Origin: a virus
DNA: 64,000 bases
Direction: 5' to 3' (one strand)
Virus genome (UHGV): UHGV-2113617
Below the pieces are notes generated by a model. That model had not been told where the DNA came from, searched no databases, and saw nothing but the letters and a program-made list of their open reading frames with translations. Position numbers and translations under genes: made by a program. Shown piece by piece: positions 8,798 through 15,787 of this stretch (position 1 is the stretch's first letter; the number at the start of each line of letters is the position of its first letter).

Positions 8798-9019
8798 TTA
8801 TTCCTTAATTCCTAGTACTTGTTTAAAAGTCTCGTCGTAATCAAGACTTTGGCCCGTTTGTTCTTTATGTTTGTATATAATATCACTTACTTCTGATAGC
8901 ATATTTTTATATGAACGAGTTAAAGCAGATTTAAGCACGCTGTATCTATCAGGAAATTTACCATGTTCATTATAATAAGCTATTGCTAATTCACGGACTG
9001 CCTTTTCAGCAGTCTCCAT
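8798..9019 (-). CDS. hypothetical protein
   Basis: 73-aa ORF. Confidence 0.5.
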
Positions 9020-9028
9020 ATATATTCT

Positions 9029-9346
9029 TTACGCTTGGTCATTTTCTTCTCGGTTAAATCGGTGTTTGCAATGACGACATTTATATTCAAGCTCTGGTTT
9101 ACGCCAGTTAATCAATTGGACCTGTTCAGTACCACATTTTGGGCAGTTCGGAACATTCTTAGAAGCCCTTTCGCGGCGTTCAACCATAACCATAATGGCA
9201 TCCCAAGCAGGAGGTTTAAAGTCTAGATCGTCACAGCCATGAATCTTTCCACGCATTTCCAGATCGTCTTCTTCACCAGCCATAATGATTTTAATTAGAC
9301 TGGAATTACTTGAAGCTGCAATATCTTCTAATAGACGCTTTTTCAT
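9029..9346 (-). CDS. zinc-ribbon protein
   Basis: 105 aa with CPKCG...CRHCKH. Confidence 0.55.
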   Translation of the reverse strand: MKKRLLEDIAASSNSSLIKIIMAGEEDDLEMRGKIHGCDDLDFKPPAWDAIMVMVERRERASKNVPNCPKCGTEQVQLINWRKPELEYKCRHCKHRFNREENDQA

Positions 9347-10272
9347 TTCAATACCTCAATAGCATTACGTAAACCATTTGCTTTTGCATTAAGAGCTTTT
9401 AACAATTTGGTATGTTCGGCAATCTGGACTTCAACTTCAATCAAACGAGCATTGAGATATTCACGTTCTTCGCTCAAGTTATCAATCTTTTCTACTTTAG
9501 GTTCTTTTACAACTGGCTTATATGTATTAGGGTTCTTCAGTTTAATTAGAATGCGTGAACTGTATAACATTGAACCATTATCTTCGGTTTCGTCATACAT
9601 TTCCACTACGTCCATCATCTCCACCATCGTGCAGAGTTTATAAGACAACGAACGAATAGTTTTGTTGTGCTTATTAATTTCTCTAGCTGTCATGGTGCCG
9701 AGATTACGTGAGTAATAATAAGGAACCTGGATATTAATTAATACTGATGAACCACCTGGCTTGTGTGTTACTTCATCAGCAATAACCCAGTCCTTAACAT
9801 GAACTGTATTTGTACGGTCATCGCCGGCGGTAAATAGTTTACGAGCATGCTTAAAAAGCATATTCACTTGGTCATTGAATTGACAAGTGAATTTATCAGC
9901 AAATTTAGTTTCAGGAATGGTAGATAACCAATCAGCCAAATGGGTCTTTTTAACATCGTTAACAATAGTAAATTCAACCAAATCGGTTATAGATGTCGCA
10001 GATTTAATGAAGCTCGGCTTCATAAAGTTTTTAATGTTATCACTAGCTACAGTAGAAGATAACAGACGAGAACGTTTAAACCATTGAAGCAAATTGCCTA
10101 ACGAATGAGAATAAGCGTTTTGAGTATCTTTACAGATATGATTTTCCTGGCCAACATATTGAAAGAAATCACGAAGAATATTATTGATTACTGCTCTGTG
10201 CCCAATCTGATAATTACGGTGTTTAGTAATAAGACTATCAAAATAATCAATATAATGTTTACGAGTTTTCAT
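9343..10272 (-). CDS. coiled-coil paralog family member A
   Basis: 309 aa, MKTRKHY start, C-terminal ~50-aa heptad-rich tail; shares motifs with the next three genes. Confidence 0.7.
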   Translation of the reverse strand: MKTRKHYIDYFDSLITKHRNYQIGHRAVINNILRDFFQYVGQENHICKDTQNAYSHSLGNLLQWFKRSRLLSSTVASDNIKNFMKPSFIKSATSITDLVEFTIVNDVKKTHLADWLSTIPETKFADKFTCQFNDQVNMLFKHARKLFTAGDDRTNTVHVKDWVIADEVTHKPGGSSVLINIQVPYYYSRNLGTMTAREINKHNKTIRSLSYKLCTMVEMMDVVEMYDETEDNGSMLYSSRILIKLKNPNTYKPVVKEPKVEKIDNLSEEREYLNARLIEVEVQIAEHTKLLKALNAKANGLRNAIEVLK

Positions 10273-10324
10273 GTTCTTCTCACTTGGTTAATGATTTATA
10301 CTCCGAGCCATCCTTGGCTTTAAA

Positions 10325-11326
10325 TTACTTAATTAACTGTAAAGCTTGTTCAAGACGATCCAGGCGATTAACAGATTCTTCCCAAATCCTTTTAGCCTGT
10401 TCATATTCTTTCTGCGCTTTATTAGAAATTTCTAGAGCTTCTTTATAAGCTTTTTCTAATGCAATAACTTCTGGACGAATTTCTACCGATTCAGGTGAAT
10501 CATCAAGATTATCCATTAGTTCCTCAAGGGTAGTTTCTTCTTTAGGAGTATTCACAATTTCTTCGCATTTTTGTTGGTAAATTTCTTTATCAGTTAGTGA
10601 ATAAGCACACTTTACTTCACGAAGACTAACTACAATTTTGTATCCTTCCCAACCGCACACATTCTTAAAAGGATAAGTATGAATATTTTCTACTGTTTCC
10701 ATACAAAGTAGTGCAGTCTCTAATTGACGAGTTATATCACTAGCAATTGAGAAAAATTTATTAATGTTCTTTTGATTAGCTTCTGGTGTAAAAAATTCAT
10801 AATTCACAAAAATAGCTGCTTTATTTTTATCAAGCTCATATTCTTTTATGATAATCATATCAGAAGCCCAAGGATGAATTTGACGATAATCGCCATAGCA
10901 TAATTTAGAAGCTGATTTTAGAATTTGCTTTTTGAAAAGTCTGAAATTACTAATCCAACGACGAGTAAAAATATTCTCAGGGTCTTCTTTATTATTAAGA
11001 TGATAAGAATTAACATCACCGAACCAATTATATCCTACTACATCTTTAGTTCGTTTAATTTCTTTCCCAAATTTACCAAGAATATCCTGATTAACTAAAT
11101 ATGAAAGAAGACGAGAACCTTTAAAGGTTTCCTTAATATCATCTTTATCTTCGCGACTAGAAATTTTATGAACTTCATGAATAAATTTGCTGGAAGAAAC
11201 AATGCTTACATCAATATTATTTAGCCATTGATTGATAATGGAAATAACGCTATTCTGACTAGACATAAGTTTAACTTTATCATCAATAACACTATTGAAT
11301 GATTTGATATATTCGTTACGAGTCAT
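10325..11326 (-). CDS. coiled-coil paralog family member B
   Basis: 333 aa from MTRNEYIKSF (ATG 11326, GAGGAG RBS); C-terminal coiled coil. Confidence 0.7.
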   Translation of the reverse strand: MTRNEYIKSFNSVIDDKVKLMSSQNSVISIINQWLNNIDVSIVSSSKFIHEVHKISSREDKDDIKETFKGSRLLSYLVNQDILGKFGKEIKRTKDVVGYNWFGDVNSYHLNNKEDPENIFTRRWISNFRLFKKQILKSASKLCYGDYRQIHPWASDMIIIKEYELDKNKAAIFVNYEFFTPEANQKNINKFFSIASDITRQLETALLCMETVENIHTYPFKNVCGWEGYKIVVSLREVKCAYSLTDKEIYQQKCEEIVNTPKEETTLEELMDNLDDSPESVEIRPEVIALEKAYKEALEISNKAQKEYEQAKRIWEESVNRLDRLEQALQLIK

Positions 11327-11354
11327 ATTAATCTCCTCAGTAAAAAGTAAGAAC

Positions 11355-11384
11355 ATTATACCACATCCTTGTGGTAAAGTAAAC
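11355..11384 (-). promoter_or_regulatory. T4-type early promoter
   Basis: GTTTAC, 18 bp, TATAAT on minus strand. Confidence 0.55.
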
Positions 11385-12415
11385 TAGTTCAGTGCATTTA
11401 GTGCATTGTTCAGTTTAGAACGTTGCTTCGTGAGATTTTTGACTTTTTCTTGAGCTTTTTCTAGCGTCTTTTCAGCTTCTAGCACTTCATTAGTTGCTTT
11501 AACGAGTTCATCATCTACTGCCTTGATAGACTTCTCAATCGCATCTGCATGCCATTTTTCAACAGGTTTAAGACTCGGATTTTCAATAGGAAGAAAATTC
11601 ACTTTATTGAATTTCCATGCATCCTTATTACCTGAACTATACATCCAAAATTTAGGATCGTTTGATGAGTAATTGGATAAATTTAAATTTAAGTTATCTT
11701 GCACTTCCTGCTTTTTCTCTTGTGTGACTTCGTCCTTTCTCAAAAAATCGTATTTAAATGAAACGATCATATCAAGTTCATATGTTGTTGTATGTTCCCA
11801 ATTTCGCTCAAAATGAGGTAAAATCTTAGACTGAACAGCGGCAACAACATCCATATACTTAAATGCTTCTGTCAACTGCGATTTAAGGCATTCACAAATT
11901 GAAAGAGAATTTTTTGTATTAGGTTTAAAGCTAATTCGTGCAGTTCTATTATTTTCTTTTAATGGTCTTACTTCCATCTGAAGAGTATAACCATCAAATT
12001 TCAGATTCTTTAAGTTAATATCAGAACCTTTTAATCGACTCGCAGTTGATAAAATTTGCTTTAATTGTCTACGGAACAGAGCAATAAATCTCCATTCAAT
12101 ACGATAATGATTTGGATTGAAAAATCCAGATGATAAATCGACCTTACTTTGACCAACGCCTTGAACAAATAGAGGATTTTTATAATCAATAGTTTTACAG
12201 AAATCGGTGAGCTGCTCACGAGCCGTCATTTGTGTAATATACCCTGCTTTACTAAAATTACGCACCCATTCACTACTGCTATTCTTATACTTAAAGTGAT
12301 GAATAGCATGATTAACTTTATCAGGGTCTAAATTATTTTCACACAAAAATGTCATAACATCACGAGTATAGCTGGCTCTACGAACTATATCTTCAATTTG
12401 AGAACGAGTTTTCAT
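11384..12415 (-). CDS. coiled-coil paralog family member C
   Basis: 343 aa, MKTRSQIEDIV start, AAGGAAT RBS, C-terminal coiled coil. Confidence 0.7.
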   Translation of the reverse strand: MKTRSQIEDIVRRASYTRDVMTFLCENNLDPDKVNHAIHHFKYKNSSSEWVRNFSKAGYITQMTAREQLTDFCKTIDYKNPLFVQGVGQSKVDLSSGFFNPNHYRIEWRFIALFRRQLKQILSTASRLKGSDINLKNLKFDGYTLQMEVRPLKENNRTARISFKPNTKNSLSICECLKSQLTEAFKYMDVVAAVQSKILPHFERNWEHTTTYELDMIVSFKYDFLRKDEVTQEKKQEVQDNLNLNLSNYSSNDPKFWMYSSGNKDAWKFNKVNFLPIENPSLKPVEKWHADAIEKSIKAVDDELVKATNEVLEAEKTLEKAQEKVKNLTKQRSKLNNALNALN

Positions 12416-12423
12416 GGTATTCC

Positions 12424-13314
12424 TTAAGATTTAAGTAAATCAACAATTTTAATTAACTTTTCACGCTCAGATTTAGCTTTACTACTCAATCCAGATAGTC
12501 TGAAAATTTCATCGTCATACTGTTGAATAGAAATATTCAGCTCTTCAATCTGCTTATTAAAATAATCAATTTGTTCAGAATGTTTTTCGTTACTACGAAC
12601 CAGTACAGGTTTTGTAGGCAATTTAGTTGAACTGGATTCATCCGGGCGATAAATTAAAATACAACTTGAACCAATAGGGCATTTAGCACCAGATGAATAT
12701 TCTAGTGTTCCAGCTTCTTTTAAAACTTCAAAAGCTAAACAGAGATGATGACCCATATTGACATAATCTGTAGAGCGAGCTCTGATGTAATAATCATCTC
12801 CACGAATACTAAATTTAAAGCATTTAAGGTCTTCTGTATTATTGGTCTTAAAAATCATTTGTTTATCTAGACCTTTAGCTAATCGAGCGCCCAATGCTAA
12901 TAATCGTCGTTGATTTTCCCACAAATCCGCAATCATTTGGTCAAATGATAATTTCGGCATTAATCGACCATAAAGGTCATATCCTTTATTATAATTACGA
13001 AGGATTTCACTCGCATTAATGCGAGACAACGCTCCAATTTTATTAAGGGCTTTCATAATGCGATTAGATAAACTCATTCCAGACCCATTTGTTCGCTGTA
13101 GATGTTTTTCTAATCCAAACCCAATATCAACTTTAAATTTATCTAAAATTTCGGCATGAACATCTCTGTCAATAACGTTCAAATTCAGAGTTGGGTTAAA
13201 TCTATGAAAAAATTTATCTGGCTCTCCACGACGAAATACAGTCCATTCATTCATCATTTTTTTATTAACTAAAGATTTAATTACTGTATTGACATTATTA
13301 ATTACTACTGACAT
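12424..13314 (-). CDS. coiled-coil paralog family member D
   Basis: 296 aa from MSVVINN (ATG 13314, GAGGAAA RBS); shared ASRL/ARLAKG motif and C-terminal coiled coil. Confidence 0.7.
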   Translation of the reverse strand: MSVVINNVNTVIKSLVNKKMMNEWTVFRRGEPDKFFHRFNPTLNLNVIDRDVHAEILDKFKVDIGFGLEKHLQRTNGSGMSLSNRIMKALNKIGALSRINASEILRNYNKGYDLYGRLMPKLSFDQMIADLWENQRRLLALGARLAKGLDKQMIFKTNNTEDLKCFKFSIRGDDYYIRARSTDYVNMGHHLCLAFEVLKEAGTLEYSSGAKCPIGSSCILIYRPDESSSTKLPTKPVLVRSNEKHSEQIDYFNKQIEELNISIQQYDDEIFRLSGLSSKAKSEREKLIKIVDLLKS

Positions 13315-13321
13315 ATTTTCC

Positions 13322-13735
13322 TCACTCAATTTCAATTTTAATTTTACTAAATACACAGAATATGATGGAAAAGACTATATAAGCACCACACACAGATTGA
13401 ACTAATACCATTCCAAAGAACCAAACAATATTATCAAACAATGTCTGTTTTACGTCGAAAGGACGTAAACTTACAGTAATATTATCACCTTTTTCTATTG
13501 AAGAATACATCTCTGGGGAAATATATTCACTAAATCTATAACCGTCTTCGAGTTCATATACGGCAATAAACGATAAACTAGACCCCTTTCCTTGAGTTCC
13601 TGTAAAGGTATTAACTACAGTAACATCATAATCTTTATAATGCATATAATCATTAATTGCGTAATAACCATATGCAACTACTATACATAAACAACATATC
13701 AATAAATTCAATCTTTTAATTATCAACCGTTTCAT
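13322..13735 (-). CDS. membrane protein
   Basis: 137 aa with N- and C-terminal hydrophobic helices. Confidence 0.55.
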   Translation of the reverse strand: MKRLIIKRLNLLICCLCIVVAYGYYAINDYMHYKDYDVTVVNTFTGTQGKGSSLSFIAVYELEDGYRFSEYISPEMYSSIEKGDNITVSLRPFDVKQTLFDNIVWFFGMVLVQSVCGAYIVFSIIFCVFSKIKIEIE

Positions 13736-13790
13736 AATAATCTCAATTAAAAGGGCTTAGAACCATTATACCATCCTTGGTATAAAGCGG

Positions 13791-14318
13791 TTATGCGAGT
13801 ACCGTCTTTAACCGTTCTTCAAACTTCCGAAGAGTATTTTGGCGTTCAGCTCTTTGCTTTTTGTAAGTTTCAATACGCTCTGAAATGAGAGAGTATCGTT
13901 CATTTACTGATTCTTTCATAAAATCAGGAATTTCACGAGAAGCTTTAATCTCGTCAAATTTATCAATAACAGCTTGCTCTTCAGCAATTAAGTTATCATA
14001 CATTAAAATATCTTTCTTGATGAACTCAATATCTTCTTGAGTTACACGAGACATTTTAGATGCTTTATCATTTTTGTACTGTTCGTTAGTATCACGAGAC
14101 CAGTGTAATGTACGATTTTTATTCGTATTCTTGTAAATTTCTACAATACCGATCTCATCAATAATAACGATCCAATTCCAACGGGATTTGTAAATTTGTC
14201 CTCCATCAACAGTGATTTCACCTCCGATTGAGATGTCGTTAAAGAACTTGCTTTGCGCTTCAGATTTAAATTTGCCATCGTTGTAATTTACCAAGTTGAA
14301 AATATCTTTAGCGTTCAT
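13791..14318 (-). CDS. hypothetical protein
   Basis: 175-aa ORF, GGAGG RBS. Confidence 0.6.
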   Translation of the reverse strand: MNAKDIFNLVNYNDGKFKSEAQSKFFNDISIGGEITVDGGQIYKSRWNWIVIIDEIGIVEIYKNTNKNRTLHWSRDTNEQYKNDKASKMSRVTQEDIEFIKKDILMYDNLIAEEQAVIDKFDEIKASREIPDFMKESVNERYSLISERIETYKKQRAERQNTLRKFEERLKTVLA

Positions 14319-14782: not shown

Positions 14783-15751
14783 TTATTTCAGAAGAGTAAC
14801 CTCAGCAATTTCTTCCCAACCGTTTTTGTCGGTCATAATAAAGTCAGCAAGATAAAGAGCAGTACGCAGTGAAACATTGCGTAAACGATTAACATTAACT
14901 TTCATCCATGATAATGCTTTATAAGTTTCTTCATCAGAAAGACCGCGCTTTTGCATCATGTCAGTTGAAAGAATAACATCTTCAACCCTGACCATAATTT
15001 CTTCATTAGTGTGAACACCCAAATCTAAATAAACTGAGCGGGACACTAATGCTTGTAAATGTGGAGCAAGTTTAGTACCACGGTCTAATTCGCGGTCAAT
15101 GTCAACGTTTGTGATAAAAACAATCGTTCCTTTAAATTCAAACTCACGGTCAATGCCTTTTTCTTCTAAGTAAGAAGATGCAGTGCTCCAGCAGACTTTA
15201 CGGGTCTCTCCAGTGTCCAGAGCAGCTTTTAGAAGATTAAGAATGTCCATATCAGAGAAAACATCCACATCATCAATCAAAAGGACAGAATTCTCTTCAC
15301 GATTATTCCAAAGCTGTTCATAAAGACCAATACCAGAGATTTTACCGTTAATGCTTTTATATTCAATGTATCCATTATCATTTGCTTTATTTAAAGCTTT
15401 ATCTAAAGAATACGTTTTACCAATACCTGCTGCGCCAGAGATAATCAATGAACGAATATTTCCATTAATAATACCATTCGTCATCATTCCCATAACATTA
15501 AATCTTTTATTAATGCGGGTTTTCATATCTTCATATGATTCTTTAACTTCTTCAACTTTTACACCATCATATGAAATATCTGATTTGTAAACCCAAACAC
15601 CGCGACGTTTACCGTCAATTTCAACAAAAACTTTACCATCTCCTTGTGCATCTACCGGAGCATTATCTGGGAACCATTCGCCTAAGAGCTCAAAAGTTCC
15701 AGAGATTTCTTTACCGAAGTAGATACCCTTATTGATAGTTACAGTTTTCAT
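14783..15751 (-). CDS. P-loop ATPase (AAA-like)
   Basis: 322 aa; Walker A GAAGIGKT, Walker B LLIDDVD. Confidence 0.7.
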   Translation of the reverse strand: MKTVTINKGIYFGKEISGTFELLGEWFPDNAPVDAQGDGKVFVEIDGKRRGVWVYKSDISYDGVKVEEVKESYEDMKTRINKRFNVMGMMTNGIINGNIRSLIISGAAGIGKTYSLDKALNKANDNGYIEYKSINGKISGIGLYEQLWNNREENSVLLIDDVDVFSDMDILNLLKAALDTGETRKVCWSTASSYLEEKGIDREFEFKGTIVFITNVDIDRELDRGTKLAPHLQALVSRSVYLDLGVHTNEEIMVRVEDVILSTDMMQKRGLSDEETYKALSWMKVNVNRLRNVSLRTALYLADFIMTDKNGWEEIAEVTLLK

Positions 15752-15787
15752 TTTATTCTCCAATTTCACATTTGTTTTGATAGGGTA

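Follow-up and report, generated by a model that had tools for sequence, protein, structure and literature searches.

The nrdC.3 to nrdC.6 array of a T4-like coliphage: four probable ancient paralogues, including the orthologue of the anti-Dsr1 gene nrdC.5

The DNA analysed here is a window of 64,000 nucleotides from the virus genome UHGV-2113617. It belongs to a T4-like coliphage (Tequatrovirus), and between positions 9343 and 13314 it carries a tandem array of four genes which are the orthologues of T4 nrdC.3, nrdC.4, nrdC.5 and nrdC.6. Profile comparisons, and predicted structures of two members, support the reading that the four proteins are ancient paralogues of one superfamily restricted to T4-like phages. 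They have a common build, in which a basic alpha/beta head is joined through a poorly ordered linker to a heptad helix of some 50 residues at the C-terminus. The array's third gene is 93% identical to T4 NrdC.5 and stands in the same position, and T4 NrdC.5 was published as an anti-Dsr1 counter-defence gene by Srikant, Guegler and Laub (eLife 2022, PMC9391042). The explanation we lean towards, at somewhat better than even odds, is that members of this ancient superfamily are non-enzymatic, oligomeric binders which would neutralise host immune proteins early in infection.

The stretch from 9000 to 13800 (4.8 kb) has 95-97% DNA identity to many Tequatrovirus genomes and matches 744 phage records. 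The genes were assigned from annotated relatives and from T4 itself, where the array has the same order and orientation, between nrdC.2 and nrdC.7. As a first-pass annotation made by a model had described them, they are four adjacent minus-strand open reading frames (ORFs): nrdC.3 (9343..10272, 309 amino acids, aa), nrdC.4 (10325..11326, 333 aa), nrdC.5 (11384..12415, 343 aa) and nrdC.6 (12424..13314, 296 aa). Transcription runs from high to low coordinates in the order nrdC.6-nrdC.5-nrdC.4-nrdC.3, with nrdC.6 as the first array member. Compared with the T4 proteins, nrdC.3 is 60%, nrdC.4 89% and nrdC.6 about 98% identical, the last figure by tblastn. The start of nrdC.4 was placed at ATG 11326, which has a GAGGAG ribosome-binding site ahead of it, because a longer 343-aa ORF would start inside the -10 box of a promoter. 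T4 RefSeq gives nrdC.6 a length of 275 aa (window region 12424-13356, minus strand); the 296-aa start used here (ATG 13314, GAGGA ahead) is a better fit to the N-termini of the Dhakavirus and Gaprivervirus orthologues.

Databases keep these proteins in three separate families of unknown function, Pfam PF26897, PF23882 (DUF7235) and PF26899 and PHROGs 1435, 2351 and 2257, which are joined here. PF26897, PF26899 and the three PHROGs contain the proteins of the array together with their orthologues from Tequatrovirus, Mosigvirus, Dhakavirus and Gaprivervirus. The nrdC.5 protein matches DUF7235 over residues 1-343 (E 3.6e-124; 414.6 bits against a gathering score of 30 bits), and a Pfam search found no match to that model in the other three proteins. 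Both nrdC.3 and nrdC.4 match phrog_1435 (E 1.5e-114 and 1.3e-164), and their close homologues carry PF26897 in precomputed Pfam labels. The nrdC.6 protein matches phrog_2257 (E 2.5e-150), and precomputed labels give PF26899 to homologues 97% identical to it.

Raw pairwise comparison relates just two of the four proteins. BLASTP aligned nrdC.3 and nrdC.4 at 25% identity over 226 residues (E 6e-6), and every other pair had E of at least 0.028 in pairwise BLASTP and phmmer. Family alignments were then built with sequences from related phage genera and compared as profiles. In hhalign, nrdC.3 and nrdC.4 matched at 97.5% probability, and nrdC.4 and nrdC.5 at 84% (E 7e-6) over 236 collinear columns; nrdC.6 was not yet joined to the others by these profiles, its best E being 0.08.

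Intermediates came from other T4-like phages. An exhaustive HMMER search of 1.84 billion representatives with the nrdC.3/4 profile returned 11 proteins only, all of them consistent with T4-like phages where the source was named, and found no cellular relatives. Among the 11 was a 315-aa protein of Klebsiella phage vB_Kpn_F48, with its relatives, which scored 41 bits on the nrdC.3/4 hidden Markov model (HMM) and 29 bits on the nrdC.5 HMM. Klebsiella phage Roth34 and Citrobacter phage CF1 carry genes of 324 and 335 aa, respectively, in the syntenic position upstream of nrdC. The single-copy relatives from Klebsiella and Citrobacter T4-like phages were used as a bridge set, which matched nrdC.3/4 at 99.7% (E 2e-26) and nrdC.5 at 98.2% (E 3e-14) in hhalign. 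The combined profile matched the head of nrdC.6 (columns 5-149, not the tail) at 93.9% (E 1.6e-7). Reversed and column-shuffled decoys gave E of 0.39-0.93 in the nrdC.6 comparison and 0.23-0.63 in the nrdC.5 comparison, and when any one bridge member was dropped the nrdC.6 link stayed at 91-96%.

HMMs of single-family tails (the last 62 residues) had no significant match to the other tails (E at least 0.08 among 125 ORFs), so homology is not argued from the tails here. A pooled tail model matched only the four genes, which is a circular test. The four tandem paralogs proposed by the first-pass annotation are supported through profiles with intermediates and through the agreement of the nrdC.5 and nrdC.6 models, with raw pairwise significance for nrdC.3/nrdC.4 only. 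On the same profiles and models, the three Pfam and PHROGs families and the single-copy Klebsiella and Citrobacter phage genes would merge into one superfamily.

It might be objected that nrdC.6 is unrelated to the others, and that its likeness comes from a convergent helical tail and compositional similarity. Its direct profile comparisons were not significant, Pfam and PHROGs keep it as its own family, and its N-terminus differs: the MKTR/MTRN-type start claimed earlier for all four proteins is found in three of them, and nrdC.6 starts MSVVINN. But the combined profile matched its head and not its tail, with clean decoys, its predicted structure has the element order of nrdC.5 and a structural neighbour in common with it, and the gene is located directly in the array. 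We consider a separate origin of nrdC.6 very improbable.

AlphaFold models of nrdC.5 and nrdC.6 were used to describe the heads. The nrdC.5 model has a predicted local distance difference test score (pLDDT) of 61, with a core at residues 56-222 mostly at 70-90. It contains a helix at 56-70, short strands at 83-93, two helices at 106-116 and 118-129, a hairpin at 145-163, a helix at 170-185, a second hairpin at 191-220, a disordered linker and a single helix at 285-342. The nrdC.6 model (pLDDT 79) contains a helix at 95-107, short strands, helices at 124-133 and 135-145, a hairpin at 168-178, a helix at 187-200, strands at 205-222, a linker and helices at 242-272 and 278-295. The two models have the same order of elements, as compared by the order of helices and hairpins and not by superposition. 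In the predicted head, helices at the N-terminus lead to a conserved helix and a small strand region with G-x-G; next comes the conserved helix pair with its G-D-(D)-R end, and then two beta-hairpins with a helix between them.

When searched against BFVD, both models matched uncharacterised proteins, roughly 300-370 aa long, of other T4-like phages that infect Klebsiella, Enterobacter, Pectobacterium, Citrobacter, Serratia, Erwinia, Acinetobacter and Aeromonas. They share a match to A0A2Z4QAR2 of Klebsiella phage Mineola (E 3e-6 for nrdC.5 and 6e-3 for nrdC.6). Matches of the nrdC.5 model to tail-completion and tail-terminator proteins in BFVD (E 0.004-0.05, template modelling score below 0.2 on the query) were too weak and were rejected.

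Two blocks are conserved in the sequence alignments, (K/R)S(R/G)LLS...IL..F.K and the helix pair ending G-D-(D)-R, and by hhalign and AlphaFold they fall on equivalent helices of the nrdC.5 and nrdC.6 models. The helix pair is the internal motif that the first-pass annotation had seen in all four genes, and it is real: hhalign and the models co-locate it. All segments given here are on the minus strand. The pair lies at 9814..9903 in nrdC.3 (aa 124-153, ...NMLFKHARKLFTAGDDR), at 10883..10969 in nrdC.4 (aa 120-148, ...RRWISNFRLFKKQILKSASKLCYGDYR), at 12020..12106 in nrdC.5 (aa 104-132) and at 12862..12945 in nrdC.6 (aa 124-151).

The C-terminal heptad-rich tails of about 50 aa also held up. They lie at 9346..9489 in nrdC.3 (aa 262-309, ending ...GLRNAIEVLK), 10328..10471 in nrdC.4 (aa 286-333, ending ...RLDRLEQALQLIK), 11387..11563 in nrdC.5 (aa 285-343, ending ...QRSKLNNALNALN) and 12427..12591 in nrdC.6 (aa 242-296, ending ...EREKLIKIVDLLKS). 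Every tail has a single unbroken heptad register with 75-88% of its a/d positions hydrophobic, and its 3.5-residue hydrophobic periodicity stands out against shuffles (P = 0.044, 0.0006, 0.0002 and 0.0024). In the models the tail is one continuous helix in nrdC.5 and two long helices in nrdC.6. With hydrophobic a/d positions in a long helix, the tails are predicted to be coiled coils.

A similar motif, R-x-K-L-x-x-A-[ILV]-x-x-L-[KN], lies at the C-terminal end of all four tails, and in each family no segment is better conserved across genera than the tail (in nrdC.4 the tail scores 0.63 and the head 0.47, in nrdC.6 the tail 0.65 and the head 0.49). Along with the adjacent, co-directional arrangement of the genes, this would suit a single machine, in which the four proteins hetero-oligomerise via their similar C-terminal helices for one task or one common partner. 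Such a machine is hard to reconcile with the rescue of the Dsr1 phenotype by plasmid-borne nrdC.5 alone, with a copy number that varies from one to four between genera, with the loss of individual members in natural phages, or with the failure of one family's tail-only profiles to match the others significantly, and we think it unlikely.

The functional case starts from nrdC.5. Supplied in trans from a plasmid, T4 nrdC.5 restores phage plating on MG1655 carrying dsr1 (PMC9391042). According to a 2026 preprint, Dsr1 uses a bilobed TPR sensor to recognise the major capsid protein of phages (PMC12803255). The genetics of nrdC.5 and Dsr1, taken with the capsid sensing by Dsr1, are why early, non-enzymatic, oligomeric immune-protein binders are favoured. 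In the proposed mechanism the head would determine which target is bound, and the coiled coil would oligomerise the protein, either to gain avidity for defence proteins that are themselves oligomeric or to present the heads correctly. The nrdC.5 protein would defeat the Dsr1 sirtuin defence, which depletes nicotinamide adenine dinucleotide (NAD+), probably by binding Dsr1, for example at its TPR sensor for the major capsid protein, and would block it before late proteins such as the capsid protein appear. Each of nrdC.3, nrdC.4 and nrdC.6 may handle a different host factor.

Searches of Pfam, NCBIfam, PADLOC and the PDB found no match to a solved structure, a catalytic motif or a defence-system model, with nothing beyond noise from PADLOC and NCBIfam. 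This agrees with the first-pass annotation, which had seen no catalytic motif. It had suggested host-takeover or anti-defence factors; the anti-defence reading has experimental backing for T4 nrdC.5 (PMC9391042) and extends to nrdC.3, nrdC.4 and nrdC.6 by family membership only, so an anti-defence role of these three is something we infer. No literature on nrdC.3, nrdC.4, nrdC.6, DUF7235 or anti-Dsr1 activity was found beyond PMC9391042. In that paper T4 NrdC.5 was a single uncharacterised early gene, published without a mechanism, and in searchable papers it is not linked to nrdC.3, nrdC.4 and nrdC.6, which appear here as its distant paralogues with the same architecture.

The mode of action proposed for NrdC.5 is that of DSAD1 from Bacillus phage SPbeta, which binds and neutralises a SIR2-type, NAD+-depleting sensor. 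The target of DSAD1, DSR2, is a different host protein and is triggered by the tail tube, not by the capsid protein that Dsr1 senses. The likeness in mechanism is conjectural; a PDB profile search found no sequence match between DSAD1 and the array proteins. Other counter-defence clusters of T4-like phages, the dmd-tifA-adfA 'anti-TA island' and the internal proteins IpI/IpII/IpIII, are likewise early or accessory, dispensable and clustered in plastic regions, and each disarms one host system, its loss narrowing the host range. Those clusters consist of unrelated small proteins, whereas the array consists of paralogues, some 300-340 aa long, that all have the head-linker-coiled-coil build.

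The heads are basic, with net charge +4 to +11 and isoelectric point (pI) 8.8-9.5, and the only acidic linker is that of nrdC.4. An anti-restriction DNA mimic of the Ocr type has a strongly acidic surface, which these heads lack. Their charge would suit regulators of host takeover, in which basic heads bind DNA, RNA or a core host machine, the coiled coil dimerises the protein, and the effect on Dsr1 is an indirect result of altered expression or timing. Early expression would fit such regulators too, as would purifying selection with highly conserved head cores within the genus, and immune-protein binding by family members is itself inferential. On the other side, library searches matched no family or fold that binds DNA or RNA, laboratory hosts do not require the genes, natural isolates exist that lack them, and the sole known phenotype is specific to a defence gene. 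We regard nucleic-acid-binding regulators as a minor possibility, if a slightly better one than the single machine.

The number of members varies among T4-like genera. Tequatrovirus has four; Dhakavirus and Gaprivervirus have three (nrdC.6, a 290-300-aa nrdC.5 type and nrdC.4); Mosigvirus has two (an nrdC.6 type and an nrdC.3 type); and Klebsiella phages Roth34 and F48 and Citrobacter phage CF1 have one each. A 335-aa protein encoded directly upstream of nrdC in an Acinetobacter phage is a candidate on architecture alone. Just upstream of the single member, Roth34 and CF1 share a conserved gene of 262 aa with no sequence relationship to the family.

Each gene is dispensable individually on laboratory hosts, and natural isolates have lost members independently, singly or in subsets. 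ACG-C40 is without nrdC.5 to nrdC.3, and Pinarejo has lost nrdC.6 except for its last 47 codons. Salmonella phage Manna carries the in-frame fusion nrdC.6(1-266)::nrdC.4(251-333), and P0056 the fusion nrdC.5(147-275)::nrdC.3(131-309). The junctions of these deletions and fusions look like short microhomologies (…DEI/…EEI, …KVN/…QVN). Tail-only matches (H85, H125, H165 and P0056) had raised the idea of head swapping on a constant tail, and this was dropped: they are deletion products and in-frame fusions of neighbouring paralogues, with no new heads. A divergent nrdC.5 relative, P0076, was seen on an 803-nt contig, and in one T4-like genome from IMG/VR nrdC.4 is split over two reading frames near residue 178, either as a frameshifted pseudogene or through a sequencing error.

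Within Tequatrovirus the head cores are 94-98% conserved, and the ratio of nonsynonymous to synonymous substitution rates (dN/dS) of nrdC.3, nrdC.4 and nrdC.5 against T4 is about 0.2-0.27, which indicates purifying selection. The nrdC.3 gene is a mosaic compared with T4: its first 60 residues are about 87% identical, its centre 40-57%, and its last 40 or so residues 100%, with no synonymous changes at the 3' end. This suggests that a central cassette has been exchanged between two allele types circulating in Tequatrovirus. The paralogs had been called diversified, which describes the swapped centre of nrdC.3 only; the paralogues are otherwise ancient and under purifying selection.

Several points weigh against the reading as immune-protein binders within one superfamily. 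Functional data exist for only one of the four members, and they come from T4's protein and not from this phage's. Direct binding of Dsr1 by nrdC.5 is our proposal; the published evidence is genetic. The nrdC.5 model is only moderately confident at its pLDDT of 61, and the basic heads would also fit nucleic-acid binding. The nrdC.6 protein joins the family through intermediate profiles and models and not directly, its direct hhalign comparisons with nrdC.3/4 and nrdC.5 giving E of about 0.02-0.12. Finally, the conservation of the heads and the low dN/dS are unlike the fast diversification often seen in arms-race proteins.

The array lies in an early-transcribed region of T4-like genomes. The internal early promoter that had been noted ahead of the second member is present in the gap between nrdC.5 and nrdC.4 (11355..11383, minus strand): GTTTAC-N-TGTGGTATAAT (GTTTAC ... 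TGTGG TATAAT) matches the T4 early consensus, and the same site, 11383-11355, is annotated by similarity as a T4 early promoter in phage SA20RB. The membrane protein said to follow the array is nrdC.7 (13322-13735), which does adjoin it, on the upstream side in the direction of transcription and not downstream.

At the other end, nrdC.2 (105 aa, 9029-9346, minus strand) overlaps the end of nrdC.3 by four bases; it has a CxxC...CxxC zinc-ribbon signature and weak matches to several zinc-ribbon Pfam families. Beyond nrdC.7, nrdC.8 (175 aa, 13791-14318, minus strand) has a helical, heptad-like C-terminal tail and no match to the family tail model or to any family profile. The nrdC.10 orthologue (14783-15769, minus strand), a P-loop NTPase (GAAGIGKT), weakly matches STAND- and AAA-type domains; an Acinetobacter T4-like phage has a conserved copy near nrdC as well. 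Many orthologues of all four array genes are automatically annotated as 'thioredoxin', apparently a spill-over from the name nrdC. Some database copies are attributed to assemblies of Enterococcus faecalis or E. coli, or to a 'Pseudomonas phage', most likely through contamination or mislabelled hosts.

The genes themselves have long been catalogued, and the role of nrdC.5 was published in 2022. The proposals made here are the four-way homology, the head-linker-coiled-coil build and the extension to single-copy genes of other T4-like genera, none of which was found in the searchable literature. A bolder version, which we offer as speculation with little weight, is a modular platform across T4-like phages. 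In it the coiled coil would either form homo- or hetero-oligomers or attach to a shared host hub, and the basic heads that it displays would be exchangeable, every one of them fitted to its own bacterial pattern-recognition sensor (Dsr1, other TPR-type or related). An ancestral inhibitor would have expanded to four copies in T4, covering several immune receptors at once.

No virulent phage has been studied better than T4, and yet the function of many of its early genes is not known. If nrdC.3, nrdC.4 and nrdC.6 are related to the anti-Dsr1 gene, they become three candidates for counter-defence and may provide leads to the host systems that they target. Merging the three families with the single-copy Klebsiella and Citrobacter genes and the Acinetobacter candidates would make results on any member transferable to the others. 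In phage therapy, differences in host range among near-identical T4-like phages may be explained in part by which of these genes they carry.

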